Below are positions 24,668 through 60,813 of a DNA stretch of 64,000 bases, in pieces. The translations under genes were made by a program, and so were the position numbers. The stretch is from Acanthaster planci (Eukaryota), in assembly GCF_001949145.1 (NCBI RefSeq), contig NW_019091356.1, positions 62,001 through 126,000 of the forward strand, written 5' to 3'. Each line of letters begins with the position of its first letter. The first letter of the stretch is position 1. Under the pieces are notes generated by a model. The model was not told the origin of the DNA and did no database searches. It saw only the letters and a list, made by a program, of their open reading frames with translations.

Positions 24668-27600
24668 GGTTCAAGTCCATATCAGATAACCCAGATGGCT
24701 TTGTTACGGATGAAGAGCTGCGTTCCTTAATAAAATGTAAATCGTCCATTTGGATGCTGATGTGCAAGGCTTAGTGCACGGACTGGATTTGCAGTGAGGT
24801 GTGTATTCGGCTCGTCCAGTACTTGACTCGAAGCAGAAATACTCACGCCACAAAAAGTGTCAGCCCCTCTCCACCAACTGACGGTTGTATCGCATACTAT
24901 AATTACCAAGAACAGCACAAATGCACTGCAGGATTGCACTTCGCTTGAAAGTAAAGGAGGTTTTATGGTGAACTCGAAATCAATTTACTGAGGGAAGCCG
25001 CCATAACAACCCCGCCAACACTGCCAATGCCGTTCCCGCCACTAATTTCCGGGTAGTTTATTACTTGGTACTCACTTATGTCTCTGACAGTCAAAGGCGC
25101 AGAGAATTTGAATTAAAATGTCTCTGTTCATTAATTCGTCAGCTCAAGCGCGAATGGCCACAGATGAATAATTGCCGTCAATGACAAATGCCTCAGACAT
25201 GTACTGTGCAATCTACTTCTGGTCTTGCAGAATGAACACGTCGTATACAACTACACCGAACAGTTACCCTATAATCGTGTTGTTTCACACAAACCCCTTA
25301 GACATTACAGACTATAACAGTCGGTGTGTGTTTTTCTTAGATAAAAAGACATATGATGCACGTGATTCAAACAGCTGCAATGGCCAACACTTATCTTTGA
25401 TTTCTCTCCACAATATATGAAACGGAATATCAGCATAATGAAATGAATCTAGTTCATTACGACAAGCTATACACAAAACCAGTCTGCTCAGAATTAAACC
25501 GTAAAAAAGCATGGTCCGTGACTTCCGACGGGCTTCACAGACAGAAGCTTTGATTTGCGCACAATAACTGGAAATTGTGGAATAATAATCAAGTCACCAC
25601 AAAAGTTACTCAGAGGTTTTTAAGAAAGCAGGTGTTATACTACTAAGGGGCAAATGCTACATTCTCTTCGTCTTCTGCAGAGACTAAAGGAGACCAGTCG
25701 TAAAATTTTGTAAATTAATATTGCAACTCAAAACAAGTCCCAAGCCATAGGTTACAGTCTCAATAAACGTAGAAATATAAACAAAGTTTTAAAATGAAGT
25801 TCTCGGAAAATCCGTAATTTTAAGCACACACATCTTATCTCTGATTTACTTCAAGAAACTTAGGAGATGTATTTGAGAAGAGGGCACAGAAATAGTTTAG
25901 GTGTGAACCACATTTCCATCATAAAGAGGAATGTATGCCTTTTGAAATGTTTTTGTTTTACTGCATCTTCAAATGTATGCCTTTCTGTCATTTTATTGAT
26001 TGATGCCATGGATACCATTTTGCCAATTGGCTATTAAAGGTGATTTCTGGGAACAATCAAAACTTTCTCGAAATTATTACTGCGGCTCCATTTTGTCACG
26101 GAAAACTGCGTATGATATTAAGGACACGTGCATTATATTACCACTCCATTATTTCTGCATGTGGATATACGCGAGTGATAGGCCTAACTGTTCTGCACAT
26201 TCCCAGGAGGGCATGTCGTACATAATAGACATCTAATATCAATTCCTTCAGGAAATATCCAAAGACGCTTTGTGGGTCGAACAATGTCTGACGCCAAATG
26301 GGTCCATGAATATAAGAACGAATGTGCAATAAAATCGAAAGATATTAACATAGAATTGCAACTCATTTCGCACAGTTTTGATGTCTGGGAATTAGGAAAA
26401 TAGAAGAGAAGTTTTAATCTGATTGCATCAGAATTGAATAAATCTCCGTGCACAAGCACAGCAAAATGGCACTATTTCAGCCTCACCACTGAAAAAGCAG
26501 TTCCGCTGACGCACTGAATGAGGCAGCTACGTATTCACACAAAGACCAAGCGTGGACACAACAGGTGTGTCGGCCTAAGGCACATTCGTTGCTAGGTAAT
26601 AAGCGCCCTCTCTCACTTCCGCAAGGAACACATAACATAGAGTAGAATCGTTCGGAAATGAATATGCTGTTTATTCTATTACATAACGACAAGCCGACAC
26701 AAAGAAAAAATGTTTGTAAATCTTTAATCCATAATCGATTTATTTCTCTCGGCGTTTACAACTACTGGAACACTATTACGCCTACGCCTTCAACTGACAT
26801 CCAAAATGTTTGTATACGAACGAACACATGCACATCTGAAGTGATCAGGGATCCAGTGGACTTATGACATTTCACTCTGCTGCCAGAAGGTTTAACATTA
26901 TTATACTCATTATGTCATGATTTTGGGTTGTATGAATAAAACTAGCATTTGCTCTTACGACCAGGTTTTAGCGTACAGTCGTGTTTGTACGAATTTAATA
27001 ACACAGAGAAAGCTTATACTGAAAAGCATTAAAGTTTCTTTAAAATGAACACTTCTTACTTCTTTATTCTTCTTGCTTTCGCTAGATCATGCATATTTTC
27101 TTCAATCTGTATGAAAAAAAAGGAGCAGGTACTTTTGATTTATAATTTTCAAGACTGGACCAAAGCAACCTTGGAAAAGTATGGTGAAGCAAATGCTTCA
27201 GAGCACAAAATGGCAGCGTTTATGAATCAGAAATAAAAAAATGCTTTGCCTTATTAGGAAGAACTGTCTATGAAGAATCTGAATACAAGCAAGTGAACCG
27301 ATTTCAAGACCTCGTCGGTAACCCACATGATGCAGTTCTACAAGTTAACAAAAATATTTTGCCTGTTTTCTGCAGTGGCAGACAAATCATCAAAAACAAA
27401 TCCTGGTAATCACTCTTAAAGCCTCACAATAGAACTTTCTGCTGCGTAAAAGAGTCATTATTTGTGGCTGTTTGTCGCGACCGGTGCCATTTCAAAGCAA
27501 CACAGTTCTCACTCATACTCCTCGCGAGGCAGGAAAACGAAAATTCCATCCACACGGTGAATTACGTTTTCAGCAAATGACCATGAATGACAACTTGCAA

Positions 27601-29099: not shown

Positions 29100-32000
29100 A
29101 TGTACCACCTTCCAAGATCGTGGTGGTTTGTGGCGATCACTACTTTTGCAAGTTTGGTGACTCTGTCGCAAGGTAGGTCAGTTTGACGGTATAAAAATAA
29201 TAAAAAAATAAAACTAATTTGTTACCTTCAAAAAAGATTGAACATAGGATCTGATTGATGATTTTAAAAGTTTTCGTCTTAAAAATTTTAACAGAATTTA
29301 TTATGCAACCGCGCAGTACCACTTCAACATGTCACAATAGTCCAGTGCTATCTCATCTTACACTAACCGGAGAAAGTGTAAACAGATATTTGATCCCTGC
29401 CGTTTCTATTTGTGTCCGAGAACAAGGCCAATAAAACGTTCCCAAAAGTTTCTTCGAGAAACAAGAGCTTAATGTGAACTAATATGTTCTATACATGTAT
29501 ATCAGTAAATCCAACAAAAGTTACAAATGTTTAGGTTTCCATCAGCGACCTGTAAAAACTGGGAGACACTGAATCTCTGTTTATCTTTTTCATAGGAAAA
29601 ACAAGGTCCCAAAACAATAATCAAGCACCTATACATACAAAATGAACAAATTAGTATTGACTTGACGCACCTGTTGGTTCTTCTTTTACGGTCTAGGATC
29701 AGCAATTACTATATGTATCGTTTCATGGTGTTTGTATTTCTATTTAGATATTTGAATCACATGGCATAATTAACGCCATCAGACAGAGAGGGCACCCTCG
29801 TTTAATTACTGGTTTAAGTTAAACAATTTTGTTAGAGCCGTATGTATCATAACTGAGTACACATTTATTAGATTCCCCCTCTCCTTTGTATATATCTTTT
29901 GTCCTTTGTATTGTGGTATCTGCAGGGATTTTGTATGTATTCTTTCTGTGTACTGATTTTTTTTTTCATTTTGTGAGAACGAAATACCGTTAAATAGTTT
30001 AATTAGTGCTGCAGCTGAACCGAGTGATAATTTAATAATAATTCACGCACAGCATTTACATAGCGCAATATTAATCGAAGTGCCTCAAAGCGCTCATCAA
30101 TAAAACGAAGAGAAAACTAAAATATAACAGAATTTAAAACCCAAGAAGAATAAAAATCAGACCGATACAGATGTCACATCAATGAATAACAGGCCCGATT
30201 CTATGCGGGGCCAGGGGAATGAAGCCCCCTCCCCCAGCTCAACAATATTGGAATCGCGACTCTGCAATTTTTTTTAATTAAATGAATAGTCAGTAATCAT
30301 TTTGCAGGGTCATTATGGCAATATATATATTAGATTTTTTTCTCCAAAAGTAAAGAGCAGAAGCAAAAGTTAACTGGTTACATGTACATCAAGTGTCTAG
30401 TCCCCCTCAACCCCCCAAAAAAATGGTTCTAGAACCGCACCAGACGAAAAGTAGTGAAATGTTGTAAAAACTATTCAGATACCTAAAAAATGATGAAACA
30501 CTGTTGAAACACTTTCACACTAAAAATTTCCCCTTTACACAATCATTCGTAGTCGCAAGTATACAAAAGTATTCTCAAAATCATTGAAAGACTTTGCTCA
30601 TTTGTTAGACAACGGAAGCACATTCCAGAGTTTGGGAGTATCCGCTGAGAAAGCTCTATCACCTTAAGATGTTGATGCTGCAGTGGAAAGTTTCTGAAGA
30701 TGTATGCTACAAGATCAGAGTGAGCTGATGGGCCTATGATCAGTTAATTAATGATTTACTGATGTAACGAGGTGCTCATTAAATAAAAAGCGTGGACCAA
30801 GAATTCACAGCTGAAAACATGCAACAAACTACATTACATTCAGTTTGCATGACTATGCAAAATTCTCACAACATTCGGTTGTACTGCATTCACACCAACA
30901 TTATGCATGTCAACAGTCCAATAGCCAACCTCCTTACAATCCATATTAGGCCAATGATGTCATTAAGTACCGATGCAAAATACCAGTTGTAATATTGATT
31001 GGATGCTTATTGTCGTATTGCCCAAGGCAAGTCCAGAACCTGCGTTACCTGCAAGCTTGCGCTGATGTGCCTTTAGCCTGCTCCACCACCAGAGCAGTGG
31101 CGTAGCTAGGATTTACTAGTGGGGGCATATGGAGGCACCAGCATCTTATCGAGGGGGGGGGCACCTGCTTTCAGTGGTGTGTTTTTTGAGGCAAGTTTTT
31201 GTTAGCCTTGTTCAATATCCATTCATCTTTTTTTCATTGGGGGCACCTGGAGGGGATTTGTGGCTACGCCACTGGACCGGAACACTTACAATTTTAGTGC
31301 AGTTTCCTTTTCTTTGATCATGATCGTAGTATTCCTTTAAATTTGAGGGATTTCGCCTCACAATGTTTGCAAATCTCAAACAAGTCAAAGTTGATCCGTT
31401 AGACCGTGTATACGCGTGGTAATGAACCGAACCGTGTCCAAACCATGCCCCAAACAAACCCGAACCAAACCTGGAGCTAACTAGATTGCAGCAATAAATA
31501 CAAGAAATAATTTCTCCGTTTCCATCAATTCATAGTATCGTATTATGTCCCTCGAGCGATTATTATGCACTGTATTTTGTCGCTTGATACTTTTAGGAGA
31601 ACATCGCAAGTTTCCCTAGGGCACAAGACGGATAACAATGAAGCCAGAACGTTGGAGCTGTCATAATGAAGTTGCAAAATGCCGCACAACGCTCAATGAA
31701 TGCTTTATTGACAAAACTGATAATACCCTAAGAGTTCTCGAAGGCAATAGGGTTGAGAGAAGGAGAAAGGTAAACAAGGATATAGACTCCACCTTTAAAC
31801 AGCTTAATAAAACATGAAAAATAAAGGGCACGTCCATCTAAAGACGTGATGCAAAATACAATGTATAATCTCTCAATCCTGACATTGCACTTTATTTTCA
31901 AAAATGTTAAACTTAAATACTTTAAATTCTACCCATACTAAACGGAAATTAAAAATGGGTATTCCTTCTGCCGAAGATACAGCATTCTAACGCATTAGAA

Positions 32001-35000
32001 TACACCGTGTTGCAAAAAACAAAAATGAAGCAACAATCAACATCACACAATGGTAAAGAGTCATTTGTCGCCAGAATTCTTTAATAGACGTGGAACTCAT
32101 CTTTTATCTCTTTCCTGAATCTATCATATTCGCTGTAATGTTTAATGGGAGTGGAGCCAGACTATTTCGGGTTCCAAGCTTCACTTTCAATTTTTTTTCG
32201 TAATATGACTTAAAACATTTGAAACTAATTTATCACAAATTTTAAAAGATTATAACCATAAACTGGCAATGAACTTTTATATTGTTTTTGTTATTTTCTC
32301 TCAGATTACCCAAATTAAAAGTTAACCTCAGTTTCAATTCAAGATGGCCGACACATACTGATACCGTGTATTAAAGCTTGCGCTTCAGAAATAAATCCTA
32401 CCCCTTTCCATACGAAGTGCCAAATAGAGACACAGCTCAAAACAGTATGTTTAGAATTGAATTGAGTTGAGTTCAATTTAATAATAAATAATTTCCGGCA
32501 TTTCTGTTAACTTGACAACTGGTTACAAACGATTAAACGGATCATTAAAGCTTGAAAATCACACACATTAACTTGTTTGTCGACATTCATGAACGCCAAT
32601 ATCATTTCTTAATTTTTTTCCCCAGCTCAGTCTTGTGGTTCAGTGGTCACAACTCCCAATCTATCGATTGTATCTGGCAGCAGCTTTGACGATGGTGACA
32701 CAGTCAATTTCGAGTGTGCATCAGGTTATAGTCTGATTGGTGCACCAATCATCACGTGTATCGCTGGGGACTGGAGTCACGAAGTCCCAACGTGCGTCAG
32801 TAAGTCATTCAAAAAGTCGGCATCTGTAATCATTCAAAATCACTGTACGCAGCACTGTCAAAATTGCAAAGTTTTAGCTCTGTTGTTTGCAAATAAAATA
32901 CTGCGAGTTGAGTGTAGTTTATTTCGTTCTGCACTTTTATCTCTGATGCATGCCACTTAACAGAACGTCCTGTGTGTTTTTTTTTTCAATTAAAAATCTG
33001 TCTCAACTTGATGCATTTCAGTGCCACTTTTTTATGATATTCCATTTGTTTTACCCTATTCAAGCAGTACTTCCTTTTTGTAGTTTAAAGGGATTTTGTT
33101 GCATCTGCTTCCAGATATTTGGAAGTAAGATCTTCCCAAACCTTTTCAGATATCTCATCTTGTATTGCTTGAGAAATCATTCTTGTTTTCTGTTAACAGT
33201 GGACTGTGGAGACCCTGGCTTTCCTATTAATGGTTCCCAACTTGGCACCTCATCCTACCTTGCATACACCACTGTCAACTTCCAATGTGATTTGGGTTTT
33301 AGTCTTATAGGAGCTCCTGTCATTACATGCATTGATGGATCATGGTCGCTACCTATTCCAACATGCTTACGTAAGTTCTGTTTATTAATCTCACTGAGGT
33401 AATTATTTGCTGACATGAGAATTTTTCTGCTTTTCACCTTTATCTTTATTTCACCTCATGCTACATGCTAACACTGCTAGACAACCAAGATAAAGCACGA
33501 AGCCGTTTACCTAGAGAATTTGAATTACTTTATCTAGAAATGGTTCCCACTCAATTATTTACTGTTTTCCCACGGGATGTACATATAAGGCGAGCATTAA
33601 AACGTCTTAAAGAATATTAAATGGTCATCCAATTTAAGCACACTCTAATTGCTCATTTCTCCTTGGAAGCTACCTAAAATACATCCAATGTGTTGTAAGA
33701 AAAATAGTCTAAGCTAACAATGATGCTGAACTGTAGGCAACTCTTCTTTCCTTCATCCTAATTAGCTGACTGTGGAGATCCGGGAACCCCAACCCAAGGT
33801 TTTCAGGTGGGAACTCCGACTTACTTCATGGGTACCACGGTAACATTAGAGTGTAATGGTGGTTATGAACTTGTGGGGGCTTCAGTAATCACATGTGAGG
33901 GTGGAACCTGGAGCCGTGATATCCCTATGTGCTTCGGTGAGTATTTCATGGAACCAATTTCACAAACTAACAAAGAAAGATCTTTTATTCACCAAGAAAT
34001 GAACTACACAGAAGACGGATCTGTTTTTGAGCTGAAGACAGAAATATTTATGAAACTGTTTGTTTCTTCACCACTATAAATTTGTATGCGTGAGACACGA
34101 TCCTAGTCATTTTCAGCAGTCAAATGTAAACAGCACGAATTTTTACAAAAAATGTAGTTATGCTCAAACAACTTCTCTTTTATAGCTAACTGTGTTGACC
34201 CCGGTACACCCGAAAATGGCATACAGTCTGGTTCCTATGGCAACGGTGGCGTCTTGACATTTATATGTAACAATGGATTCAGCTTGTTGGGAGCCAGTGC
34301 AATTACTTGCTCCAATGGCACCTGGAGCAACGATGTACCTACATGTGAAGGTTAGTTACAAATTAAGACCCAATCAATATCCAAGGTAACTAGTAGTCCA
34401 TGATTCTGCGTTATAAATAAATGACATATTAATGAAATGAAACGTGGCAAACCACAGGAAACGTTGAGTGAAAATGAAGTCATTCGATTTGTGATCGGTT
34501 ACTTCGCAAGTTCTTGGGATATATTGAACAAATTACACAAGATTTACTTTTCAAAACTGGAGATTGAGTATGGGTAATGTTTATGATACGATTTTTTTCT
34601 TTCTTCAGCGGACTGTGCTGACCCAGGTACCCCATTAAACGGTAAAACGACGGGAACGTTCAGTAATGGAGACACGCTTTCATTTGAATGTAATGATGGA
34701 TACACGCTTGTGGGAGCTAGGAACGCAACCTGTCGTAGCGGTACCTACGATGAGCCTGTGCCTACTTGTTTCGGTAAAGCTGTCCAACACATTCAGCATA
34801 CTTAGGATTTTTGTTCTCGTTCAAAATTAATACGTTATTGCATTTTATCAGCATCATACATCAGTTAACATAACATTTGGTTTAAAGTTTCGCTGTCCTA
34901 CAAGTATAGTGTCCACATAATCTCATTGGTGGAACGTGGAGTCTTAATTAGCCACGTATAATAGTACGAATTTACGCGCCAAAATGTTCACTTTACGTAT

Positions 35001-38000
35001 TTGACTGCTGTTGGACAAGCAAAAGTATACAATTTGTGGAATGAAAATTGGGAGAAAAACTATTGATTTTCTGGTACTGTGCCCATGGAGTAGAATTGAT
35101 AGAGCATCGATTAGGCCCAAAGCTGAAAACAGAATACCACAAAACACCATGATGGAAAGTGCAGAAAACTCCATAAATCATTATTTTCCTATTTCTGCCT
35201 CTGTCATGGAGAGTTAATATTGTTTTGTTATTTATGCAGAAAACTGCGTAGATCCAGGTACCCCAACCTCGGGTAGCCAATCAGGATCATATGGGCATGC
35301 TGACGTCGTGACTTATTCATGCACAGTTGGATTCCAACTGGTTGGTGCAGCGCAGATCACGTGTGATGACGGCACCTGGAGTAATAGTGTTCCGTCTTGT
35401 TTAGGTAAAATCTTCATTTCACACCAAAATTTTAAGACGGGTCGGCATATGAACAGGCAGGCGAGTGACTAGGCAAGCAACCAAATTTATCAGATAAAGT
35501 CCGAACCCACATTGAAAACCAACTAATGAAAACTGTTCACTTTTTCCCATGACAGCCAACTGCACAGACCCAGGGACTCCAGCCTTTGGAAGTCAAACAG
35601 GAAATTACGGCAATTCTGAAATTGTCTTCTTTAACTGTTCTGAAGGATACACTCTGGTTGGTGCAGAGCAAATCACTTGCGTGAATGGAGACTGGTCCAA
35701 TAGTGTGCCTTTATGTAGAGGTAAACAACCTATATTTATTGTGATCAAGTTAAAGATTTAAGATAAATGAAAAAGCCCTTCCTACAACAATACAGCCAAA
35801 AAATGCAACCTGCACTGAAAACAATGGAAATGCTGGTAACAAATGAGCCAGTGCATAAATGTCCTGATTTCCAGATTTCAAAGGTTTGTTCTGGGGGATG
35901 TGATTTGTCACGGAATTTGACAGTCAAACCTCACATTATGGTTGCTACACACAGCAGGTTGGGAAACTACTTTGTTTCATTTTTTTTTTCCCTTTTCACC
36001 TTGGTTTTTAACTTAGCGAATAAAATGACTTGCAGTAACAAGTTGCAGCATGCAATTCGTAGGCTTGGCAAGCTGTAATAAATTTTCAAAATAGTACTTC
36101 CAGATCTTTGTTAAATCCATGTGCTTACACTCCTCACAATATTTCGTCATGATCACAGCCAACTGTATTGATCCCGGCACACCGACATTTGGCACCCAGA
36201 TAGGAACCTACAACCACGGTGATGTTGTTTTATACAATTGTTCAGAAGGCTACACTCTGATTGGTGCCGCGCAAATCACATGCATTGATGGCACATGGAG
36301 CAATAGCATACCGACTTGCCAAGGTAATGTAAACTGAGTGCAAGGCTGGCTTTCTTTAATGATATGGTACATACCAGAACTGAATTACCAGACTGAATTA
36401 TAACCTTTTTCTTAATATCAAATAGCTCAATTAAGATCTTTGTTTGTGGAGGTGAAATCTGTTTATACGGATGATTAAAGGGTTACTACAATACTTTTCG
36501 ACACATCAATCTGTCGATACGTTCTGTGAATTCTGAACAAAAATAATCCTAAATGTCAATTTAGCATTCATGAAACACCACCGTTTTGATTTATGTTTCA
36601 GCTATTTCAAACGCAGCTACTGCAGGAATCCAACAGGAAGCAACAACTGACGCTGATGCTCAACCGATAACGATGACCACACAACCAACTGAAAGCCAAT
36701 TTAGCAGTCCACTGATGTCAACTAAACCGTCTGGTTCGGCCGATATGAGTCAGCCAACTGTGGTAACTGAACCGATTACTGCCGAGCCCTTCAGCAGTCA
36801 ACCGATGTCAACTAAACAGTCTAGTTCGCCCAATACTAGTCAGCCAACTATAGTAACTGAAAGGATCAGTAACGAGACTTTCAGTGGCCCACCCATGTCG
36901 ACTAGACCCACTAGTTCACCTAATGTACGTCAGTCAACAAGGGTTACGGATCTGATAAGTGAAGAGCCTTCAAACAGTCCATCTATTTCAACTAGACCTT
37001 CTGGTACAACTGAACCCAGTGACGCTTCCACACTTCTTATAACCACACCACCTCCAATGCCTACTCTACCAACAAGACCACCTATGCCTTCTCGGCCAAG
37101 TAGTCCAATGCCTCCAATAACTGAGAAACCAGAATATACTTATCCCCCAACACCAACCTCTGATAATCCATATCCGACAGATCAACCACCAATTAAGCCA
37201 AAGTTCTGCCCACCACTGTGGCTCCATATTCAGGGAATGTATAGGCGGCGATACAAAGATGGAGACAAGGTTATTTTCTCCTGTAAGCCTGGCTTTGCTG
37301 TGGTTGGACCAAAATGGATCGTCTGCTTTGAAGGAGAGTGGAGTGGGCTCGTTCCAGAGTGCAGACGTAAGTACACCCAAAGCAGACACACCTTCAGAAG
37401 CACTTCTGCAGACAATTTCGACAACACAATTTCTTCAACAAAGTGTTACAAACAAAATACATGTACCACGTGTGGCTATTCAAACACTGGGTACTGATTT
37501 CGAATGCACTTCATCTTCTGCTGCTTGAGTAGTATTTCATAACTCTTATTTCAGACTTTTATTTATTCATGTACTATTTGTGCAGGTACGTGCGACTACA
37601 TTCCTTCGGCTCCGAACAATGGCCTAAGTAAATTTGTTCCATCAAAGCGTGATCCTTGGGAAGATTTCAATTGGGAAGACCTCCCACCACCGGTTGGGCA
37701 TTGGCCACAGAATCATCCTCATTATCACGAACCTCAGCTTCCACATCATCCTGGTCTCTTCGATTGGCTTCCATCGTGGAGCGAGGACTTACTGATAGCA
37801 TTTCTTAATTTAGAAAAAGGCCATATTTCGTGGGAAGAGTTTTTCCAACTGTTTCTCAATGGAATCTCCAACGGGAATGACAACTGGCCTTGGAGTGGAA
37901 ACATGCCATCAGGTTTACCTGATATTCCATGGAATGATATGTTTGCATTATTACCAAACGGCATTCCTTTGGGAAATGGTAATCACATGGCGTGGGAAGA

Positions 38001-41000
38001 AATGTTCCAAATGTTTCCAGATGGTTTTCCGTTTGGAGATGGTACTTTTCCTTCTTTTGGGCCTGGAGATGCTGATGATGGGGATACCGTTCCTGTAAAC
38101 GAGGACGAAGAAACCACGAGGCCGGAGGGTGAAGGAAATGAAGACGGGCCTGGAGATGAAGGACCAGTAAGACCTGGGCCAGATGGAGGTGACAACTTAC
38201 CACCTGGCCATGGAAATATAAGGCCAGATACTAACGGACGCAATGGTAGTGTGATCTCTACTGACCGGGACATTCCATGGCAGCAACTACTCGGACAATT
38301 TTTCGAGTGGCTCGAAGCTGAAAGAGATAGCTGGCCCTGGAACATGAACACCGGTGGAAACGAAGAAATGATGCCTGGCACTAACGAAGATGAAAGTACG
38401 AGGCCAAGACCGAGTGAGAGTGATATGAGGCCTGGTGACGACGGGGAAGTTGATTTTGAGAATAGCGAAGAAAGTGAAACACGATCCGACGACCATGAAG
38501 CTGAAGTGGGGCCTGGAAATGAAGGAGGTGAAGACGATGAGGAGATGGCTGGAGATCATGATGAAGAAACAACGCCTGGTGGGACAGGAGGAGAGACATC
38601 CGAAGAAGCATATAGCCCACTTGAGGGCGTCACTCAGCTTATTGGACTTGTTTCTGGAAGAAACCCCACATCTAACCATACTAGTATAGGCAGTCTTCCA
38701 TGGCAGCAGTTATTCGATTTGTTTCCTGGTGGAGTTCCTTTTGCAGACGGAGAAATATCAGTGACCCAATTTATCAATGTGTTTCCACGTGGATTGCCTG
38801 ATGTAGGAAACTTTACAAGGAGAGTTCCTCTATCAGATGTTCTGAACAATCGTTCGTCTGAAAGACCTGTTCAAGGTAATAGCACATTTCCGTGGATTGG
38901 TGCAGCACAAACAAGCTTGCTGGGTGTAGGAGACAGAGAACTGACTTGGGAAGCACTGTATCAACGACTTCCAAATGGCCTTCCAATTGGGAATGAAGTT
39001 GTTCCATGGGATGCACTGCTTATGTTGTTTCCCAATGGACCTCCCATAGCAGATGATGAATCTGGTGATGGATGGACTGGCCAAGTGCCACAAAATTTCC
39101 TAAATCTGGGAGATGGTAGCGTCACATGGGAAGATTTGTTTGAAATATATCCTAACGGTGTTCCTGCTGGTGATTATGTTATTTCCTGGGAAGTCCTGTT
39201 CACAATATTTCCCAATGGGCTACCACTGGAGGACGGGGGTACTTCTGGTGAACCTGCTGTTAATATGCCACGTCCTATGGCATGGACTGGTATGATTCCA
39301 TCCGAAATCCTTGATTTAGGTGATGGTAGTTTAACATGGGAACAATTGCAACAACAATTCCCAGATGGTATTCCATTAGGTAATGAAACAATTACATGGG
39401 AAGTACTGTTCATGATGTTTCCGGATGGTCCCCCAGTTGCAAGTTACGACTGGTCTTGGTTAGTCTCAGGGTTTCTCTTAGGGCGTCCCCTAGAGGATGG
39501 CAATGGACAAGAGAACCCAAATCCTGGCACAGGAGCAATGAATGGTCATCCGTGGGAAGATCTGCTGGATGTGATACTCACTTGGTTACCTTCCTTTCCT
39601 GATGATTGGAGTGATGATGGAGGTACACCTAATGACAATCCAGGGAATGGAGGAATACCTGGTGTAAGACCACCTTCAGGAGGTCAATGGAGTGGCCTTA
39701 TACCAACAGGCTTATTTGACTTTGGTAATGGCAGTGAAACGTGGGAACAACTGGTTGAACAGATTCCTGGTGGACTTCCGTTTGATACGGGAAACATACC
39801 ATGGGAAACACTTTTCAGTTTGTTCCCATCAGGGCTTCAGCCTCGTCTTGAGGAATGGCCATGGTCGCTCGATCAGATGTTCACAGGAAATAATGGGATG
39901 CCACCTAACATGGGCGGCGTGTCAGAACATACTCAAGAACAGCTTCGACCACTTATTCAAATGCTCTTGGAGAAGTTATGGAGTGGAGAAATTCTCATAG
40001 ACATGATAGTACACTTTCAGGCAGGTGAAATTCCATGGCAGGACATAGCATTGATATTTCCAAACGGCATTTCGTTTGGGGACATAACTGTTCCTTGGCA
40101 AGAACTAATCGATTTATTTGGTGGTGATGGCTATGGTGGTATGTCTGGTGGTAGTGGACATGAAGGGATGATGCCCAAACCATGTCTAAGATTTCCCTTT
40201 GGAGAATTCATACCAAGACATCCCTACTACAGCAGTGACAGTGGGGGATCATCCAGTATGTCAAGAGGTGACAGTTCCAGTGAAATGGAGTCAGGAAGTG
40301 GTGGCATGATGCCAGGAAGTGGTGAAGCCGTTGGTATGATGCCTGGAGGAGGTGAAGCCCCTGGAATAGTACCTGGAAGTGGTGAAGCCGGTGGTATGAT
40401 GCCTGGAAATGGTGAAGCTGGTGGTATGATGCCTGGAAGTGATGGAGTCAGTAATATGATGCCAGCAGGCAAAGCACCAACGGAAGGTGACATGGTGTAT
40501 TTCTTCTGTCAGCCTGGCTACAAGCTCATTGGCTCTCCCAGCATTACCTGCTCGTGTGATGGTACATGGAATGGTTTATCTCCAAGGTGCAAAGGTATGT
40601 TTTTGTTTTCTGGGGGGTTTTTTTCAAATCTTGTATAGCCATTAATTCTAGAATTTTTGGAAAAAGATACACATGTATCATGGCAAATTTCATGTTGTAA
40701 TCTCATGTACAGCAATAACGAAGCCAACTGTGATGCCGGATAACACAACACCATTTGCTGAATTTACAACCCTGGACTCTGATGACCAAACATCAGGAAT
40801 ATTCAAGCAAGAGTTGACGACCATCAATCCCTTTAAAGAAACAACATCTGCTTTAGAAGAAGTAACCATGCTGGGTGAAATGGAATTTTCAACTACAATT
40901 ATGGTTGATGAAGTTACAGAAGATTCAAGTGAACATCCAAATTTGGAAACAGATGAACCAAAGGGATCAATGACTAGTCCAACAGTTCAACAAACCGATT

Positions 41001-44000
41001 CAAAAACTCAGGCAAAAGAACTTACAACCAGCCCAAATCCAAAGTTACAATCAACAGATCAACCTGGAGATCCCACAATTAGTCCACAACCAAAGTTGCA
41101 GACCACTGTTCAACCAAGTGATGCCAGTACAAGTCCACAGCAGAAGACACAAACAAGTCTACCATCAAATAATCCAACAACGGTACCCCCTGGAGAGTCA
41201 CAGTCTACTTCAAACATTGAAACGACAAACAGTGAGCAGTACAATGACTGAAATTAATATTAGTCTGATAGAGAATACATATCAAATAATCCTTCATTTT
41301 TGTAGAAAATATGCTCATACGAGTAGTTCATTAAAACTGCAACATCATATTATTATTTATTTTAATTTATATAAATTTTTTGCTCCCAGATCCATGCAGT
41401 TCGAATCCTTGTGCGGAGAAAGCAAACAGCCAATGTGTCACTACGGACCAGGGAGCCTTTGCGTGTTCTTGTTTACCGCAGTTTTTTGAATCTGATGGTC
41501 AATGTGAACGTGAGTAGAACTGCCATTGTACTTGCAGTTTCAAGGCAAAAGATCAGGTATAACAAATGTGAATAATATTTTTATTCCCAACTGAAACTTC
41601 TGAAATAACCACGAACATACAAGCAATTGCATACAAATATATTTGGGCCTTTCTGCACAACTTGTAGCAATATTCAGTGTTGTAACGAGTCACTAAATTT
41701 GGTGACTCAAGTTGAGACGAGTCAGTTTAACACTGACTTGAGTCAAGTCAAGTCACTTTATGTAGTGGAGTCATCAAGTACCAAGCTCGAGTCAATTTGA
41801 GTCACAATTTTTTTCACAAAATACAATAACAGGACAACTACGTGTGAGTCATTTTTTAAAATTTTTATTTCATTTGGACATACTGAAAGTAAATTAGGGT
41901 GACAGGTATCTAGCCAACTAAAACTTTGATTTTTACTTTATTGAGACTCTAGTCTTATAAGTTTGTATTCGAGTCTCCATGAGAGATTCAAGTCGAGTCA
42001 TTTGGTCGCNNNNNNNNNNNNNNNNNNNNNNNNNNNNNNNNNNNNNNNNNNNNNNNNNNNNNNNNNNNNNNNNNNNNNNNNNNNNNNNNNNNNNNNNNNN
42101 GGATAGGCCTACTCAAGTCGAGTCATTTGGTCGCAGATAGGCCTACTCAAGTCGAGTCATTTGGTCGCAGATAGACCTACTCAAGTCGAGTCATTTGGTC
42201 GCAGATAGGCCTACTCAAGTCGAGTCATTTACCTGTTGGGATTCGAGTCGAATCACCAAGAAATGGAACTCAGGTCATTACAACTCCGCCAATATTTTGG
42301 TTGGGAAAAGTTTTTTTATTAACAATTACCACTGTCTCAAATTTTGCAATTTCCATACAGCATCACAGTCATTCAGTGGAACTTTACGAATCACTCAGAT
42401 TGACAGTCAACCAGCAGACTTCACTGAAGAATTACAAGATCCTTCGTCAGAAACATTTAAATCAATGGCAGCCAGCATGGAAAAGACGGTAAGCATAAAT
42501 CTCGTAGCACGCTTAAAAACTATCAACGTAAATCAAGGTAACTGAAACAGGTATCCTGCACAAAAGGAAAGCCGTGTATACACCATCCACACAAATTTTA
42601 AAAAGAAAAGTAAGGACAGAAAATTGGAATCTTTGACATTTTTGATTCAGTTCTTTAGTTTAGTACACGTACACGTACATGAAATCTGTCACCAAGAGAC
42701 ATCCATACTCAAAACAAGAATACGGTAACCTCCAAATCTATGTCATTATCAATCTTGGACATTAAAGACAAACTCACAAAACTTGCTGAGATGCTTTGAA
42801 AGGATACTTGCTAGTGAATGATATTTTATTGACTGCAGCTTAAGTTTAAATCAGCACTCTGTACTGTACCATATGCTTCTTGAAAACATCAACTTTTTAT
42901 TTCAGATTGACAGTATTTACCTGACAAGCAGTCCAGCTATTGCAGAACGATACCTTGGGAGTACAGTCTTAGGATTTAAGAATGGATCCATTGTTGTTGA
43001 TTACATTGCACACCTTAACAATACTCAAGATGAATCTACTGACGATCCTACCGTTCTTGAATCAGCATTTGAAGAAGCTTACATGAAGAGTACTAAGTCA
43101 GGAAGTCTAAATATCACAGTAGATGTAGCTGCAAGTACAGTGACAGGTTAGTTAGAAGTTTGACATAAGCCAACGAAAATCCCTACCGCAAAGCCTCTTT
43201 GAGAGACTAGTTACTCAGAGAGTTGCATGAAATTTGTTTCTTAATCTAAAAAACAAAAACCATTTTCTAGCTTTTTTCAAAGCTAAACTTATTGAGTTTA
43301 TCTAATTCCAAGGTACCAGGTAAACTGAGGGCAAGGTTATTTATGGAAAACATTTAAAATGATGGATTTCACAAATGTTGTGCCATTCAGTATCACCAGT
43401 TACAGAAACACACCTAGACCAGTAAATCAAAGTCTGAAATCAACCATGTATCTTCTCTGTTACTTCTGGATTATAATTTGTAGGATGCACACACAAGATT
43501 CAAGTCATATACAAGTATGTTTGCAAGTGTACATACAAGTTATAGTCAGGTATAACTTGTACCTCATCCATAACGACTCTATATGACTAGGTTATAATCA
43601 ATAAGGCATTCGTACACATTAAGTTTAACATACACATTGTAATTTGTGTTTTTGGATAATATTTTATCAGCTTGTAAATTGTACACAGGTACAATTTAAT
43701 ACAAGTCTGGCATACACATGAGTTACTATAATGAATATTTATGGATGCAAAGGGAAGAATAATTTCACCAGGAAAATGTTCTACTAAATCAAACATTAAA
43801 TCTCTTACAACGAATGAAATTATTCCTTCACTGCTTCCAATATTAAGTATTTTGGTTCATACAACGCCTGAATAAACCACATTTGTGTACATGTCCCCAT
43901 TTTACTTTGTCAGACTGACGTAAAATCATGCCATGACATTTTTGTATACAACTCTACACACAACTTATAACTTGTACAAGTCATACAAGTGGGTTATGAC

Positions 44001-47000
44001 ATGTACTAATAATTAGCAGTACATATATATATAACTTGTGCATACCAAGCAAGCTGCATCAGGTATAAAACAGATTATAACAAATATGTTATATATATTT
44101 TAAGCCGTACATTACTTATAACTCACACATACAACATGTGCAGAAGGCAACTTGTAACTACAAGGTACAAGTCGCAGGTATGCCTTATAGCCCGCACAGG
44201 TTAGCAGCAGTGAAGGTCACAAATTACACAGCTTTGTCCAGAACAAAAGTAACAGGGCTTGGGCATTTTTGTCCAAGCACGTTTGGGTATGCATGTCATA
44301 CATGCAACCTCTTTTTGAAGAATAGCATAAAATGACAGAACTTACCGGCTGTTGTTTCTTGTTTGTTAGACCTGGATGAGTGTGCTCTATCAGATACCAA
44401 TGACTGCTCCTCCAATGCTACATGCATCAATCTCCCTGGGTCATTTACCTGCCAATGTCATGCAGGATTTCAAGATGTTTCAGCAACACCAGGACGACCA
44501 GGCAGAAGTTGTACTGGTAATGACACAAAGCAAATACAAGCACAAGAGGAGTTATGCTGTTATAATGAAAGCTTTACAAAGCAAGAAACCATGATTTTCA
44601 TTTTTCTCCCCTAGCAAAAAACATTTTGGAAATGACATGACACCAACTCTTAGTGATTGATACATTGATGACAGGAATCTTGACAAAATCAGCACACTTC
44701 ATACATGCACGTCTTCAGAGACTGAAGTAATCATCACGTCTGTACAAGATATCACAATGATTTTGGTGTTCCATTCAGGCAAATACTGGCCAAAAATTGG
44801 GATGGTTGCAAGGGAAATCCTAATAATATATTTAAAACAATATATTTATATCAATGCTTGTGTTATGTCTGAGTAAACTGCAAAGCTAACAAAGTGTAAT
44901 AGCTGTCAGAACTTGGGGAATAAAGCACAAATAAAATTGAAATGGCTTAATATTAAGTTGATTTACTGCAGCTTAATATATGTGCTCTTACTTGATCATT
45001 CTAACAGTTTCAAAGCCGTCAGTATGTTCCACATCTAACGTTGAGTGCTCCCGTAATGCCACCTGTTACGACACAGACACCAGACCCGAAGGTTATAGCT
45101 GCCAGTGCCGCATTGGATTTGCTGATAGATCACCTCAAGTCATCCTAAAGCCTGGTAGAATCTGTGAAGGTAAAGTTCATCAGTTAACCTTGAAGATGTA
45201 GCATGTCAGAGGGCTCCTGCTTGCAGCAAAATGTCAGGGAATGGACTTGCATACATGCTGAACATCCTCTTTAAAAGCCAGTTCTTTGAGTTTTTAGTGG
45301 AGTTGTAAATTGAAAAGTAAATCCCCAACATGACAACTATGGACAAACCGAACCTAAGGCTTTTACTTTCCATAAATGGATTGCTCATTGCTTATCCACA
45401 TATAGGTATATGAGCCCCCTCTATCAAAAGCTTGTAACAAAACCTCTTCTGTAAAGGTAAGGATAACAGTTTTTAATAAAAATGACCATACTAATTTTTC
45501 ACGTTTCAGAATTTTGCCCTTCGTCAAATTGTTTCAATGGTGGATCCTGTGTTAATATCTATGAAACCGGGGAGCAAATATGCAGGTAACTACTTGAAAG
45601 CGTACCACAAAGAACTTGAAATAAATCATTTTCTTTCTGGTCAATAAAAAAAATGAGCATCTTTTGGGTATCCATCATTTTAGTCTTTTTATTTATTACA
45701 CATCTACATTGTATTCTGCTTATCTCATTGGCAGATAAAATTATTAACGCACTTACACTTCTTGAAAAGAAAGGTGATGAATGGATCTTGACTGAAGTAC
45801 TGACGAGTAGACAAGCAACTTGTTCATTGTCAGATTTAATTATCAGGAGTGAAATGGCTCACCACATTTCTCTTTTAAACAAATGTGCCCTGGAAAGGGG
45901 TTCAAAGTACCTTGACAACCAGAACAAGAAACTCGCAAATACACTTAATCTGATCAGTGCTATTGATAATTCTTACCACGTTTCTGCATTCTGATTGACG
46001 ACAGTTGCCCAGACGGTTACACAGGCCTACGATGCGAGGAGGCAGAGCAGACAGGTTGGTCTCTTCCAAATTCATTTAACCCTAAAAGAGCCCTGTTATT
46101 TTCTTTATTTTGGCCCGTCAGACAGCAGGGGGGTAATTAAGTAATAGAGTAATTAGAATTGAGTAGGGGGAATACAGTAATTTCTACCCTGTCTGTTTGT
46201 TGTTGTCAGATTCTTCCCCCCCCCCAAAAAAAAACTCGGCTGTGTCTCGCTTAATATTCTTTTGGAACTTGGCATGCATATAAAAAAACACTCCTTATCA
46301 TTACAAGTGTGAAGTTTGAACTCATCAATTAGAGGTACAGTTTTGTTGTCATTTAAGTTCAAGGCCACATTTATGCCAGCCTGCTTGCATTGAGCACCAC
46401 AGTCAAAAAAGTAAACATTTTTGCCTGGCCTGTCTCAGAAAAATGCACACTACACAAGAACAGTATGTCTATTTTCACAAAACTGGAGTCAAAATGACTG
46501 CATTACTCTAAATCTGTTTAAGGCTAAATGCCAAAAAAAAATACACTGCAGTGATATCAGGCAAAATGTTGAGGGGGCGAATTCCACCCCCACCTCACCC
46601 CACCCCCAGCTCTTTTAGGGTTAAACATTGTGACAGAATAACCACATATTGGACTCACCATTATCCATCTCTTTACAGGCTTGTCAGACACACTCATCCT
46701 GGTTATCAGTTTGACTTCAGTGGCCAGTCTTGTCATCATTTGTGTTGGCCTTCTACTGTGTTTCACCTTTTACCATCGCCAAACTAAGAAGAATATTAAG
46801 AGGCTTTCCCTGAGATCTTATCCAGTCAAGAGGGACTTGTCTCGCTTTGTTAGGGATGAGGAGGTTTGGGATCCCATCACTGTTGAAACTAGGTCCCAAG
46901 ACAGCAGACAGTCTCTGGTCAGAGAGGTTAGTTGAAGGATATCTATGATATACGGTAGACAAATTAAATGCTGTGGATTCAGAACCAATGCAGGCACAAG

Positions 47001-48924
47001 AATGTTTGACGTGGCTGTTTTAGAGTCCTGAAAGGCTAGTTAACTCTTAGCACTGCCAGTTACTGGACAGAAAAAGGTATTTCTTCTGACATTCTCTGCA
47101 CTGAGGGACTAATCCACTTAGAATGAACACAACTACATCCAGCCAGAAACATTACATAAGAGTAACAAAAGACCAATGAATCTCACTGTCTGACCTCAGA
47201 GGGCATGCACATGATGAAAAGGGAACTTCAAGCAATGCTGGGCTTTGCATACAGCTGGCTAAGGTGAAAAAATAGTCAAATTAGACTCTTCTTATGACAA
47301 TACAGGATATTTAATGCCATGTTCCCGTGAGATTCAGCTCAAATGGTATTGAGCACCATATGTACAAAGTTGAAAAACAGATATAGCATGTCAGGTGCAT
47401 ATGTATTACTGCACATTAATTGCAGCCAAAACAGTTTTTACCACTTTATTCCTGTATTGAAGTTTAATTTCTGCAGCTTTCTGGAGGCAACAAGATTGCA
47501 TTGCAATAATTCCACAGCATTTTAACCAATTTTCTTTTCCTTGCTCTTTGAAAGTCTCTTCACCAAGATGACTATCTCAGGCCTGGACCATCATCTGAAC
47601 CCAGACACTTAAATTATCCAAATGACATAGGGGAAGATAACCCAGATTTCATTGAAGAAGAATTTGAATCTCAAAGTAAATATATTGCTGATGCCATGAG
47701 CAAACTCCCAGAAGTTGAGGTAGGTGAAATGAAGATATTTGGAAACTAAAACAAAAATCCTTTATATTTGTTCCATTGGTAATTTAAAATTTAGAAACAC
47801 ATTAATGCCTCTGTGAAATTGTTCAATAATTCAAATACATGTAGTTTCCTGATTTCAATATAAGCCAGATTAATTTTAAAGTGTAAATTAAATAAGAGAT
47901 CAACAAGTTTCTATTTGTACTTTGAATCATTACTAAAGAGAAGAAATAAAAGCACTGGTTCCTGAATGTAAAAATACCTCTTTCAAAAGGATTGGTGAAT
48001 ACAAAGTACTTTATTGTATTTGGGATTCCAGAGGAGGATGCGTAAAGAGGTGCGTTCCCTTGGCAACTACAACTTTGGTCAGGAACCAGACTACCGTGAC
48101 AATTTTGTCAGGCCCTACATGGCCCCTGAGGTTATCCCAATTGACCAATACCTCCAGGTATGGAAAGGAAGGCTAATTTACATGTAAAAACAAAATGTAC
48201 ATCATATGTACTTACCTACAAGCTCTCAGGCATGCCTCCATCTCGTCACAATCCAAGCAAATGTCTGTCAATGGATAGTGAAAACTTTCCTTGGAACAGA
48301 CAGCATAAACAGTTTTTAAATAAAGAAGTTTTCAAAGAAATTCATGTAGTTTCATTGACAGAAAGCTGCACTTTCTTCTGTTTTAAATACGAATTTGGGG
48401 GATTCATACTGGAGGTAATTTATAACACAGGGAGAAATTGCTTGATATTTTCATCAGTCCATGTATTCTGTTAATAACAGTTCTAACCTAAGGGCTACTT
48501 GGTTTGGTGCTCTGAATAAAAAGGCATTCATCAGGACTGCCTGTCATCAAGAATGATTTGCAGTCATTAACAATTAATTTATCTGCATCAGGATCCACGC
48601 CGTTATAAAGTGTATGATGATGAATCAAGAGGGTATGGCTACGGACGTCCTAAGAGACCAACCATTGAACATCACCATGGTAACCGGATGAGTCTCCAAC
48701 AAGACTTACGAGGCAGCAGGATGTACCTTCCAAATGACAATGTTGCCATGCCAACTCAGCATGATTCTTACCCTATGGAAGATTTCTCCTCTCCAAGACA
48801 ATCCGTCCATCCGACAGCTCAGTATCCTCCAGCATCCCGTGCATATCTGCCTCCTTCCAAGACTGCCATACCCCTTCCTCAACCTCCCCCCCCACCACCA
48901 CTCCCTCCAGTTCCAAGGAATTAG
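29100..48924 (+). CDS. Large type I membrane protein (~2500 aa): signal peptide, 10 sushi/CCP, mucin-like PTS tracts, Trp-repeat region, EGF, SEA, cbEGF, 2 EGF, TM, cytoplasmic tail; 23 exons
   Basis: Phase-consistent GT-AG exons: 29100-29172 (MYHLPRSWWFVAITTFASLVTLSQ signal peptide); sushi exons 32626-32799, 33200-33370, 33766-33936, 34186-34350, 34609-34773, 35240-35404, 35556-35720, 36159-36323; 36602-37366 (PTS + sushi); 37586-40594; 40713-41231 (PTS); 41390-41509 (EGF); 42361-42488 and 42906-43146 (SEA); 44370-44516 (cbEGF, DLDEC); 45008-45169 (EGF); 45510-45585 and 46005-46054 (EGF); 46679-46926 (TM); 47555-47719; 48032-48157; 48592-48924. Total 7503 nt. Confidence 0.88.
30020..30790 (-). 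mobile_element. Decayed 3' fragment of an L2/CR1-group LINE in intron 1 of the sushi gene
   Basis: The minus strand reads APRYIS...RPISSL*S...*GDRAFSADTPKLWNVLP, matching the GDRAFSxxAPxLWNxLP C-terminal motif of L2/CR1-clade ORF2. It contains stops and is interrupted by a MITE-like insert. Confidence 0.75.
30190..30442. mobile_element. Possible hAT-type MITE inserted into the LINE remnant
   Basis: Imperfect TIRs caggcccgattcta / tagaaccgcaccag, G/C-run subtermini, and only a weak 8-bp flanking match (atgaataa / acgaaaag). Confidence 0.35.
31095..31274. mobile_element. 180-bp MITE, hAT (Tip100-like) type
   Basis: Perfect 12-bp TIRs CAGTGGCGTAGC / GCTACGCCACTG, internal gggggca repeats, and a degenerate 8-bp TSD caccagag / gaccggaa. 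Confidence 0.75.
36700..37010 (+). repeat. Coding 90-bp (30-aa) Ser/Thr/Pro tandem repeat, ~3.5 copies
   Basis: Units start at 36700, 36790, 36880, 36970: FSSPLMSTKPSGS..., FSSQPMSTKQSSS..., FSGPPMSTRPTSS..., SNSPSISTRPSG. Confidence 0.8.
40291..40470 (+). repeat. Coding 30-bp (10-aa) tandem repeat GEAGGMMPGS, 6 copies
   Basis: Consensus ggtgaagccggtggtatgatgcctggaagt repeated at a 30-nt period. Confidence 0.9.
41675..42288. mobile_element. Non-autonomous hAT-like element with GAGTC-rich subtermini and an internal 34-bp minisatellite (spans an N-gap)
   Basis: Imperfect TIRs CAGTGTTGTAACGA / TCATTACAACTCCG; 8-bp TSD GCAATATT (41667-41674) / CCAATATT (42289-42296); many GAGTC/GACTC motifs. 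Confidence 0.7.
41988..42230. repeat. 34-bp tandem repeat ctcaagtcgagtcatttggtcgcagataggccta
   Basis: Near-identical units at 42112, 42146, 42180 and 42214, and a partial unit before the N-gap; true copy number unknown. Confidence 0.9.
46080..46620. mobile_element. piggyBac-like MITE, 541 bp
   Basis: TTAA|CCCTAAAAGAGC ... GCTCTTTTAGGG|TTAA: perfect 12-bp TIRs with CCC/GGG ends and a TTAA target duplication. Confidence 0.85.
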
Positions 48925-51900: not shown

Positions 51901-52837
51901 TAACTGCAGAGTGGAAGAAATGAAAAATCAGTTGCAAAGAGAACAGAGATTCCTGTTAGATTCACACTACTCTCATGCTAAACTTAACAGGTGGTCACAG
52001 AAGGTGGTCACAGAAACTTTCTGAGGAGCTGCAGTGTTAACAGGTTGCCAACAGGAACAGCTATGACACGTCCATGAGTGCGCTGTAAATTTTTTTACAG
52101 GAAGACTGGTTCTCTACTCCCTTTGTGTGTGAGCACTCACACTGCTGGTTTCATTACACACATGTAGTACTCTCCATATTTCAATAAAGGCAGCCTGTCT
52201 CTTGCCTCACAAATATTATGATGAATTTAACTTAATGAATGAATAATAAGACCAGGCTTTGTACAACGAGTTTTGGTTTGGGAGAAAATATACAGGAAAC
52301 GTCAGCCACGTAAAATAACCACTACATGCTGTGCTACATTTGGTTAACCACAAATGGAAACAACAATCAGTCACTGCTGGCACAAATACATGTACATGTA
52401 GACAAGCCAAAATGGAGTCCCAATTAAAAGAGGAAAAGTCCAATGCAAACACAATAAATGGTTAATAAATGCAGTAAAGCTCATGCACATATGATGAACA
52501 CAGATAATCATATTTGATATTCAATTTCTGACACAATTTGCAGAATAACAGGTGCATGCACGTGTACATGTAAGAGTACTTGCTTCATGTTTTCCCTTGC
52601 ATTATCAATCCACTGTCATGTTGGCAATCTCGCTCATAGCGGGTGACATCTACTGTAGCAGTCAATTTATCAGGAATTTAACAGCGACAACTTGTTGAAG
52701 CGCTTTCCATACAGGTTCCCAACATACTTTTGTCACTTCATTGTAACTTTCCACTGTTCAGTATCAAGCATGCAATATAAAGTCACCTTTGTGAACTGTC
52801 AATACCATCAACTGTAGCCAATCAATCAGTCCATCCC

Positions 52838-60712: not shown

Positions 60713-60813
60713 CTTATCTCACGCGCCAATTCTTTGAAGGTTAACTCCAATAATGAATAAGCGTTTATTTGGCAAAGCACAAACAAACGAACGCGTCCTG
60801 ACGAATTTCCAAG
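60713..60813. promoter_or_regulatory. Compact bidirectional promoter region between ORC2 and ZNF830
   Basis: Only 101 bp separate the divergent ATGs. E2F-like TTGGCGCG on the minus strand at 60722-60729 and ACGCGT at 60791-60796. Both start codons sit in AAGATGGC (YY1-like). CpG-rich relative to the gene bodies. Confidence 0.7.

Follow-up and report, generated by a model that had tools for sequence, protein, structure and literature searches.

The window analysed here is a stretch of 64,000 nucleotides from the sea star Acanthaster planci (assembly GCF_001949145.1, contig NW_019091356.1, positions 62,001 to 126,000 of the forward strand; the coordinates below are those of the stretch itself). 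It harbors the gene for a type I membrane protein of about 2,500 amino acids (aa), tail included, whose ectodomain carries ten sushi (CCP) domains. The tenth (sushi 10) is embedded in a single exon of 3009 nucleotides, and the cysteine pattern, the orthologs and the profile scores support the reading that the exon product includes a single CCP, interrupted past the NG motif and the strand next to it. The two halves lie about 945 residues apart and likely (with a probability of roughly 0.68) fold into one disulfide-locked clasp, by which an array of repeats with a predicted fold would hang from the protein's stalk.

Structure of the exon encoding sushi 10

The exon and the two halves of the domain are located as follows.

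37586..40594, + strand: exon with the split sushi 10 and its insert (AG/GT, phase 1-1, open frame)
37588..37647, + strand: sushi 10 first half, Cys1 at 37591, C-x3-P-x2-P-x-NG followed by a strand (same C/P/P/NG spacing in Acanthaster, Patiria and Diadema; profile scores)
40471..40593, + strand: sushi 10 second half, Cys2 40507, Cys3 40549, extra Cys 40555, Cys4 40588 (Pfam Sushi, 34.6 bits)

The exon is delimited by an acceptor AG (37584-85) and a donor GT (40595), and it is entered and left in phase 1, an arrangement common to it and to all nine sushi-bearing exons upstream. One frame is open over 1002 codons and each of the remaining five contains 26-86 stops; at the local base composition, a stop-free frame of this length would occur by chance with a probability of about 2e-26. 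The product contains six Cys (37591, 40183, 40507, 40549, 40555 and 40588, i.e., residues 2, 866, 974, 988, 990 and 1001), and Cys1 and Cys2 of the split sushi are 972 codons apart, versus 25 in exon 34186-34350. The original prediction, made from the letters of the window, had described this exon as phase 1-1 and open throughout, with the same six Cys and the same spacing; splice sites, codon count and residue count all agree with it.

The Pfam Sushi match is restricted to residues 966-1001, corresponding to profile positions 21-56 of 56 (E 2.6e-8, 34.6 bits). The four consensus Cys are nonetheless found in order (37591, 40507, 40549, 40588), together with the G[YF] and G-x-W motifs, and the exon holds one module, as is the rule for phase 1-1 sushi exons; what departs from the rule is the usual run of about 60 contiguous residues, the halves being separated by about 945.

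An assembly artefact as the source of the exon was ruled out because a single contig of a DNA run, spanning 31205-41669 with 10 letters differing and four gaps relative to the window, covers the whole of it, and the sole difference listed within the exon, at 37812, affects a third codon position and is synonymous; the run is perhaps not independent of the assembly, and 152 further differences over 20 kilobases (kb) lie beyond those listed.

Orthologs and sushi profiles

The Patiria miniata proteins XP_038078002/3 are continuous from sushi 9 through the opening Cys and a segment of 1,070-1,280 aa to the second half; the sushi 10 first half (37588-37647) is identical to that of Patiria at 13 of its 20 residues. 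In the sea urchin Diadema antillarum, XP_071492238 shows the same domain order with three complete split copies, whose Cys1-Cys2 distances are 1053 (with one extra Cys), 841 and 938 aa. This protein is treated as an ortholog because its opening architecture, the best match of sushi 9 and the tail motifs are common to both: it is 50.6% identical to the Acanthaster protein over the first 445 residues, and when sushi 9 is compared with 1,931 sushi second halves, its best match outside sea stars is the domain ahead of the split sushi in Diadema. In Diadema copies 3 and 4, the stretch bounded by the opening Cys and Cys4 holds exactly four Cys, these two included (a fifth is present in copy 1), which leaves the opening Cys as the sole candidate for Cys1 in both copies. 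The pattern C-x3-P-x2-P-x-NG is kept in all three species, although sea stars and sea urchins diverged about 500 million years ago, according to a passage of PMC5460417.

The unusual length of the domain is apparent from a comparison with 975 tandem sushi without extra Cys, drawn from the proteins matched in a representative search and biased towards kin of the split-sushi second half: the median Cys1-Cys2 spacing is 26, nine domains exceed 45 and six exceed 100, the largest being in Diadema XP_071492238. The best 150 of 954 matches of this search, mostly ordinary sushi proteins, were used; it was the only cover for lengths 138-550.

A Cys-anchored profile of sushi first halves gave +1.7 (Acanthaster) and +9.5 (Patiria) for the opening Cys, versus -18.6 and -19.5 for the internal Cys (40183 in Acanthaster); in Patiria just 2 of 1,203 insert positions score as high as the first half. 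When the first 16-20 residues are joined before the second half, the sushi hidden Markov model (HMM) aligns from Cys1 and the score rises from 48.1 to at most 54.0 in Acanthaster, from 40.4 to 48.5 in Patiria and from 45.9-50.6 to 56.1-61.7 in Diadema, each joined score being the best of three lengths, a choice that favours the test sequence. With joins of 18 residues, control fragments scored as high in 3 of 390 cases in Patiria and in 3 of 323, 1 of 253 and 0 of 285 cases for the three Diadema copies; with joins of 20 residues, compared with the same 18-residue controls, the counts were 3, 0, 0, 0 and 0 (Acanthaster, Patiria and the three Diadema copies). The original prediction had proposed that the exon opens and closes with sushi halves, which is supported by Patiria, Diadema and the joined-half scores. 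It had named a Pfam Sushi run on the joined halves as a check; on joining, the score rises and the alignment starts from Cys1, the gain being modest for Acanthaster alone.

Several observations weigh against a split domain. Besides the bias of the joined scores just mentioned, the Acanthaster first half is weak when taken alone, falling in the 6th percentile of true halves and being equalled by 56 of 922 insert positions, and its 18-residue join is matched or exceeded by 16 of 296 control fragments. One join with the Cys 40183 segment reached 53.0 bits, versus 54.0, in Acanthaster, with that Cys left unaligned, and failed in Patiria. The evidence from orthologs consists of automated gene models from three species; the Diadema model looks partly mis-spliced, its copy 2 being without Cys2, probably for this reason. 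Moreover, the RefSeq protein XP_022081937 begins at the internal Met 37987 of the exon and is without the sushi 10 first half, and no splice joint of the gene was found among those listed in six RNA runs (threshold three reads; four joints lie beyond those listed).

One alternative is that the domain has decayed, i.e., that the opening motif is a remnant and that the second half forms a fold by itself or together with the Cys 40183 segment, with no clasp. The low first-half score of Acanthaster would fit this explanation, as would the motif around Cys 40183, identical between the sea stars at 11 of 12 residues, and a similar aromatic/Pro motif, without Cys, which precedes the Diadema second half. 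It is nevertheless judged improbable, given that C-x3-P-x2-P-x-NG has been kept across about 500 million years and that Cys3 in Diadema copies 3 and 4 would be left partnerless except for the opening Cys. Cys 40183 as the true Cys1, with an orphan opening segment, had been named as the outcome that would overturn the split; it was ruled out by its profile score (-18.6 versus +1.7) and by the two four-Cys Diadema copies, in which Cys2 is the next Cys after the opening one.

In known CCPs a hypervariable region follows the NG strand (strand B) and the Cys pair as Cys1-Cys3 and Cys2-Cys4, as described in part of PMC2806952. The break in sushi 10 lies just after the NG strand, i.e., in the hypervariable region, and, with the Cys inventory of Diadema also taken into account, we infer the same pairing for this domain. 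Structure prediction added little on the two halves: the AlphaFold2 model of the whole exon product (alignment of five rows) has a predicted local distance difference test (pLDDT) of 36, too poor for reading the halves, and a complex prediction of residues 1-30 with 955-1002, run without controls, gave no answer (score 0.02).

The extra cysteine pair

Of 1,861 second halves, 4 have a Cys two residues past Cys3, and these all come from sea star-type orthologs; both full sea star proteins also carry a Cys at exon residue 866 (Acanthaster) or 983 (Patiria).

40183..40218, + strand: conserved motif with the extra Cys 40183, which is likely paired with the extra Cys 40555 (11/12 identical to Patiria; distinct from sushi first halves)

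All Diadema copies lack the Cys next to Cys3, a fifth Cys being present in copy 1 only, and the Patiria insert contains two further Cys. The co-occurrence of the two extra Cys in both species fits a third disulfide, 40183-40555, and thus the additional staple that had been suggested for this pair.

The same motif bears on the possibility that the halves form CCPs between two chains, giving disulfide-linked dimers or a surface meshwork. A long, partly disordered linker lowers the advantage of pairing within a chain, and strand-swapped CCPs have reportedly been seen in haptoglobin and IL-2 receptor alpha; since, on the other side, the conserved 40183 motif and the conserved residues past the first half suggest that the insert packs at both ends against the domain belonging to the same chain, this arrangement is considered rather improbable.

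The insert: Trp-rich repeats and acidic linkers

The insert is markedly acidic (D+E 150 and K+R 30 of 935 residues, i.e., 16% and 3%) and contains 4% Trp. The following elements have been disclosed between the two sushi halves.

37648..37728, + strand: conserved Trp/Pro/His-rich start of the insert (22/27 residues identical to Patiria)
37774..38040, + strand: partial repeat (residues 63-102) and repeat R1 (residues 101-151) (repeat profile, 23.9 and 64.4 bits)
38041..38652, + strand: acidic Gly/Pro/Glu/Asp linkers with one short amphipathic helix (44-46% identity to Patiria; low-confidence coil in the model)
38653..39441, + strand: repeats R2-R5 (residues 356-404, 435-489, 495-549 and 565-618) (repeat profile; R4 predicted as helix-hairpin-helix)
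39685..40134, + strand: repeats R6 and R7 (residues 700-751 and 797-849) with a helical segment between them (79.9 and 66.8 bits; 76% identity to Patiria over residues 698-845)
40300..40470, + strand: about six 10-residue Gly/Met/Pro repeats (sequence, alignment)

A profile built from the window's own copies detects seven full and one partial Trp-rich repeats of about 55 residues in Acanthaster and nine full and one partial in Patiria; each repeat is made of 20-residue units of the form W-x-x-L-x-x-x-x-P-x-G-x-P. Among 166 proteins searched with this profile, further copies were found in three ENA fragments and in none of the others, Diadema included. In one of these fragments the motifs follow one another as in the insert, and the acidic linkers are far shorter. 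Identity to Patiria is 62-76% in the repeats and 44-46% in the linkers. The number of copies varies, Patiria having two more Trp-rich repeats (in the R2-R5 region) and, in isoform X1, about 24 Gly/Met/Pro decamers versus about six in Acanthaster; isoform X2 is without 210 residues of the latter repeats.

The AlphaFold2 model of a single repeat (R4, 39070-39234, alignment of 10 rows) predicts a helix, a beta-hairpin and a second helix, with a mean pLDDT of 77 (87-88 in the core) and four of five models above 74. The insert, which the original prediction had described as an acidic loop of about 1000 aa, is therefore acidic but organised, with predicted folded repeats joined by acidic linkers. 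A transmembrane (TM) segment within it was considered and rejected, as hydropathy does not exceed 1.12 in the exon, versus 2.67 at the TM segment of the protein.

The Diadema insert is of similar size, Trp content (about 3-4%) and acidic excess, and is built of Leu/Met/Trp repeats of about 33 aa. No similarity between the sea star and Diadema inserts was detected by BLAST (best E 0.65) or by the repeat profile (0 matches); a deep homology of the two is possible.

Pfam assigned no family above threshold to the inserts; wHTH-Calcineurin_assc (E 0.005) and SOCS box (E 3e-4, 21.4 bits versus a cut-off of 23.5) were below threshold and were rejected. A sequence search of the PDB with a repeat-bearing fragment gave a single match (E 0.53), and the ESM Atlas gave no usable match for either the sea star repeats or the Diadema insert. 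The fold search with the repeat model returned 0 Foldseek matches at E<=10 and 0 of 48,161 chains at Z>=2, a kind of search that small domains can escape. Two metagenome scans confirmed 0 of 209 and 0 of 179 candidates, and word-index protein searches yielded one relative each among 6,711 and 7,994 candidates and none among 217 at 30-137 aa. With no match in these collections, the Trp-rich repeat would appear to be an undescribed domain.

The gene and its transcription

A model of 20 exons, from the ATG at 29100 to 46926, has AG/GT at every junction and no stop in 2,293 codons; it aligns with the Patiria ortholog from residue 1 and shows 0 mismatches to RefSeq XP_022081937 over 1,433 residues. 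The order of domains is signal peptide, eight sushi, mucin, sushi 9, split sushi 10, mucin, EGF, SEA, three EGF, TM and cytoplasmic tail, and the features outside the exon of sushi 10 are the following.

29100..29172, + strand: exon 1, start codon and signal peptide (ATG 29100, hydrophobic leader of 24 aa, GT donor, phase 1; Patiria alignment from residue 1)
32626-32799, 33200-33370, 33766-33936, 34186-34350, 34609-34773, 35240-35404, 35556-35720 and 36159-36323, + strand: eight one-sushi exons, all phase 1-1
36602..37366, + strand: Pro/Thr/Ser (PTS) mucin segment, then sushi 9, complete, with a divergent first half (Pfam Sushi, E 8e-11)
40713..41509, + strand: second mucin exon (40713-41231) and first EGF exon (41390-41509), identical to XP_022081937
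42361..43146, + strand: SEA domain in two exons, 42361-42488 and 42906-43146 (Pfam SEA, E 1.6e-12 in the Patiria ortholog)
44370..46054, + strand: three further EGF-like domains, exons 44370-44516, 45008-45169, 45510-45585 and 46005-46054
46679..48924, + strand: TM exon (46679-46926, hydropathy peak 2.67) and three cytoplasmic-tail exons (about 47561-48924; tblastn; tail motifs common with Diadema)

The divergent first half of sushi 9 (37204-37365; first-half profile -5.9) contains a run of three Arg and is kept in Patiria, the corresponding half being canonical in Diadema. The SEA domain contains a G/SIVV self-cleavage motif at 42986/42987 (GSIVV, 42984-42998, read from the sequence); G/S[V/I]VV is given as the SEA self-cleavage motif of transmembrane mucins in part of PMC13643018. 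The cytoplasmic tail (47561-48924) has I-A-x-A-x-x-x-x-P-E and R-P-Y-x-A blocks in common with Diadema and, in the sea stars, a poly-Pro end.

From Met 37987 onward the exon product is 100% identical to XP_022081937, which misses about 860 N-terminal residues (signal peptide, nine sushi and the sushi 10 first half). The transcript might thus differ from the 20-exon model, either because two genes exist, as the RefSeq model of Acanthaster implies, or because introns within the 3-kb stretch remove most of the insert. In addition to the start of XP_022081937 at 37987, the 210 residues missing from Patiria X2 and the internal deletions of Diadema copies suggest that internal splicing may occur, and junction reads are absent among the joints listed. 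This explanation is held to be very improbable: the RefSeq model would have no signal peptide, the sequence ahead of 37987 keeps an open and conserved frame, the 20-exon model has AG/GT throughout, no stop and a Patiria alignment from residue 1, the insert is conserved as protein (62-76% in the repeats), and two of four RNA runs contain a few reads from the central part of the exon.

As for expression, six RNA runs were considered overall, four without depth on the exon and two with traces. In the best run, depth is 0.45-1.3 in five of six bins of the exon (roughly eight read pairs, an estimate), and a few intronic reads are present too. Spliced joints in the neighbouring minus-strand gene provide a positive control for four of the runs, which accordingly derive from this species or a very near relative. 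Transcription of the split-sushi gene is weakly indicated.

Other features of the window

The minus strand harbors, at about 50800-59000, a spliced and expressed gene with joints 52917/53912, 54030/54933, 54994/55347 and 55519/55981 and a Pfam ORC2 match at 57797-58105. The same strand contains a single-exon rhodopsin-family G-protein-coupled receptor (GPCR) at 23690-24670 (Pfam 7tm_1, E 3e-17) and, 3 kb away (20379-20792), a fragment resembling it, with no Pfam match. The open frames 60802-61239 and 17075-17419 resemble the beginning of ZNF830 and the final exon of a short-chain dehydrogenase, respectively, though Pfam confirmed neither. Assembly gaps are located at 42011-42110 and at about 14390-14510 (219 N in all); the former lies within a tandem repeat of the intron preceding the SEA exons, outside the exon of sushi 10.

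Proposed mechanism and function

If the two halves of sushi 10 fold as one clasp, Cys1 (37591) would bond to Cys3 (40549) and Cys2 (40507) to Cys4 (40588), as in every CCP, and the Cys1-Cys3 bond would close a ring of about 985 residues. In sea stars, a third bond (Cys 40183-40555) might pin the end of the insert to sushi 10. The stalk would then run through sushi 9, sushi 10, mucin and EGF-SEA, bypassing the insert, which would form a bulky, acidic and multivalent side branch, like beads on acidic linkers; the nine distal sushi would stay attached even after a cut within the insert. Since the SEA domain carries the GSIVV self-cleavage motif, the ectodomain is likely cleaved and sheddable.

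The mucin-SEA-EGF-TM base tentatively suggests a glycocalyx or cuticle protein, SEA-cleaved and sheddable, whose repeat array might bind or space the surface matrix, an assignment we hold at somewhat less than even odds. As regards a role in the skeleton, seven short stretches taken from the protein are absent from two supplement files of the Patiria skeletal proteome, an incomplete check since the insert yields few tryptic peptides. A broader and unlikely proposal is that sushi 10 might be an expansion socket 500 million years old, a CCP clasp loaded with unrelated Trp-rich arrays of about 1,000 residues, in which breakage of Cys1-Cys3 would free about 950 residues, as in a redox or force latch. 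As part of this same speculation, the sea star array would be a helix-hairpin-helix repeat of new fold, that of urchins a different helical repeat, and the array would be hidden from the load path of the stalk.

If the halves do fold together, a domain of about 60 residues would be assembled from pieces almost 1,000 residues apart in three species of two echinoderm classes, stretching the known tolerance to insertions of a very common extracellular module. The system would offer a natural test case for how disulfide domains fold from discontinuous segments, and it might serve as a scaffold on which very large inserts are displayed. It also emerges that this conserved surface protein of echinoderms has been mislabelled and that its annotation in Acanthaster is truncated.

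Comparison with known systems

Sushi 10 shares with the Sushi/CCP/SCR family (Pfam PF00084) the four-Cys pattern, the NG turn (within a first half that scores weakly in Acanthaster), the G-Y/F and G-x-W motifs and the phase 1-1 exon; its break also falls at the hypervariable region after strand B, as this is delimited in part of PMC2806952. It differs in the Cys1-Cys2 distance (972 versus a median of 26), in the extra Cys pair of sea stars and in that Pfam sees the second half only.

The base of the protein resembles the SEA-type transmembrane mucins MUC3/12/17, with a PTS-rich stalk (exons 36602-37366 and 40713-41231), an EGF-flanked juxtamembrane SEA with the G/S[V/I]VV motif (as stated in a portion of PMC13643018), one TM helix and a cytoplasmic tail. 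The split-sushi protein differs from them in having ten sushi and the inserted array, and its mucin segments are short (about 170-200 aa each). MUC13 and HEG1 are SEA-type transmembrane mucins as well, and the sea urchin 63-kDa sperm membrane protein has the arrangement EGF-SEA-EGF.

The uncharacterised echinoderm orthologs, Patiria XP_038078002/3 and Diadema XP_071492238, have the same domain order, split position, insert size, Trp content and acidic excess. The Diadema protein differs in the sequence of its insert and in having the sushi-to-SEA unit four times. Between residues 900 and 5700 of its model, the unit of sushi 9, split sushi, mucin, EGF and SEA is repeated four times and followed by three more SEA blocks; the near-identical copies represent either a real tandem duplication or a fused model.

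Crustacean SVEP1/polydom proteins (isopod RXG68519, KAL7640866 and KAB7506590; KAG7158260) carry an acidic insert at the same site in one CCP of an array, with a Cys1-Cys2 distance of 169-216 aa; the sea star insert is about 4 to 6 times as long, and no repeated domains were noticed in the crustacean ones. The isopod insert contains an RRRR furin-type site, absent from the sea star one, and the halves would remain disulfide-linked after cleavage there. In mammalian SVEP1 it is CCP21 that carries the integrin alpha9beta1 site (PMC10281526 and PMC9805129). This site of the mammalian protein lies within an enlarged CCP loop. Membership of the split-sushi protein in SVEP1/polydom, implied by the UniRef label of the Patiria protein, was rejected: SVEP1 is secreted, and the vWA, HYR, ephrin-receptor-like and pentraxin domains, all found in true SVEP1, are absent, so that the label is a misnomer.

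Searches of the open-access literature, PMC10084454 included, yielded no description of these accessions or of echinoderm sushi-SEA-EGF membrane proteins and nothing relevant on inserted or nested sushi. Uniqueness of the architecture, for which the original prediction knew of no described counterpart, is not supported: a sea urchin ortholog shows the same design, and crustacean SVEP1 proteins have smaller inserts at the same site. The split sushi 10 is an extreme variant of a known CCP loop insertion, and the repeat domain inside it is an undescribed one.

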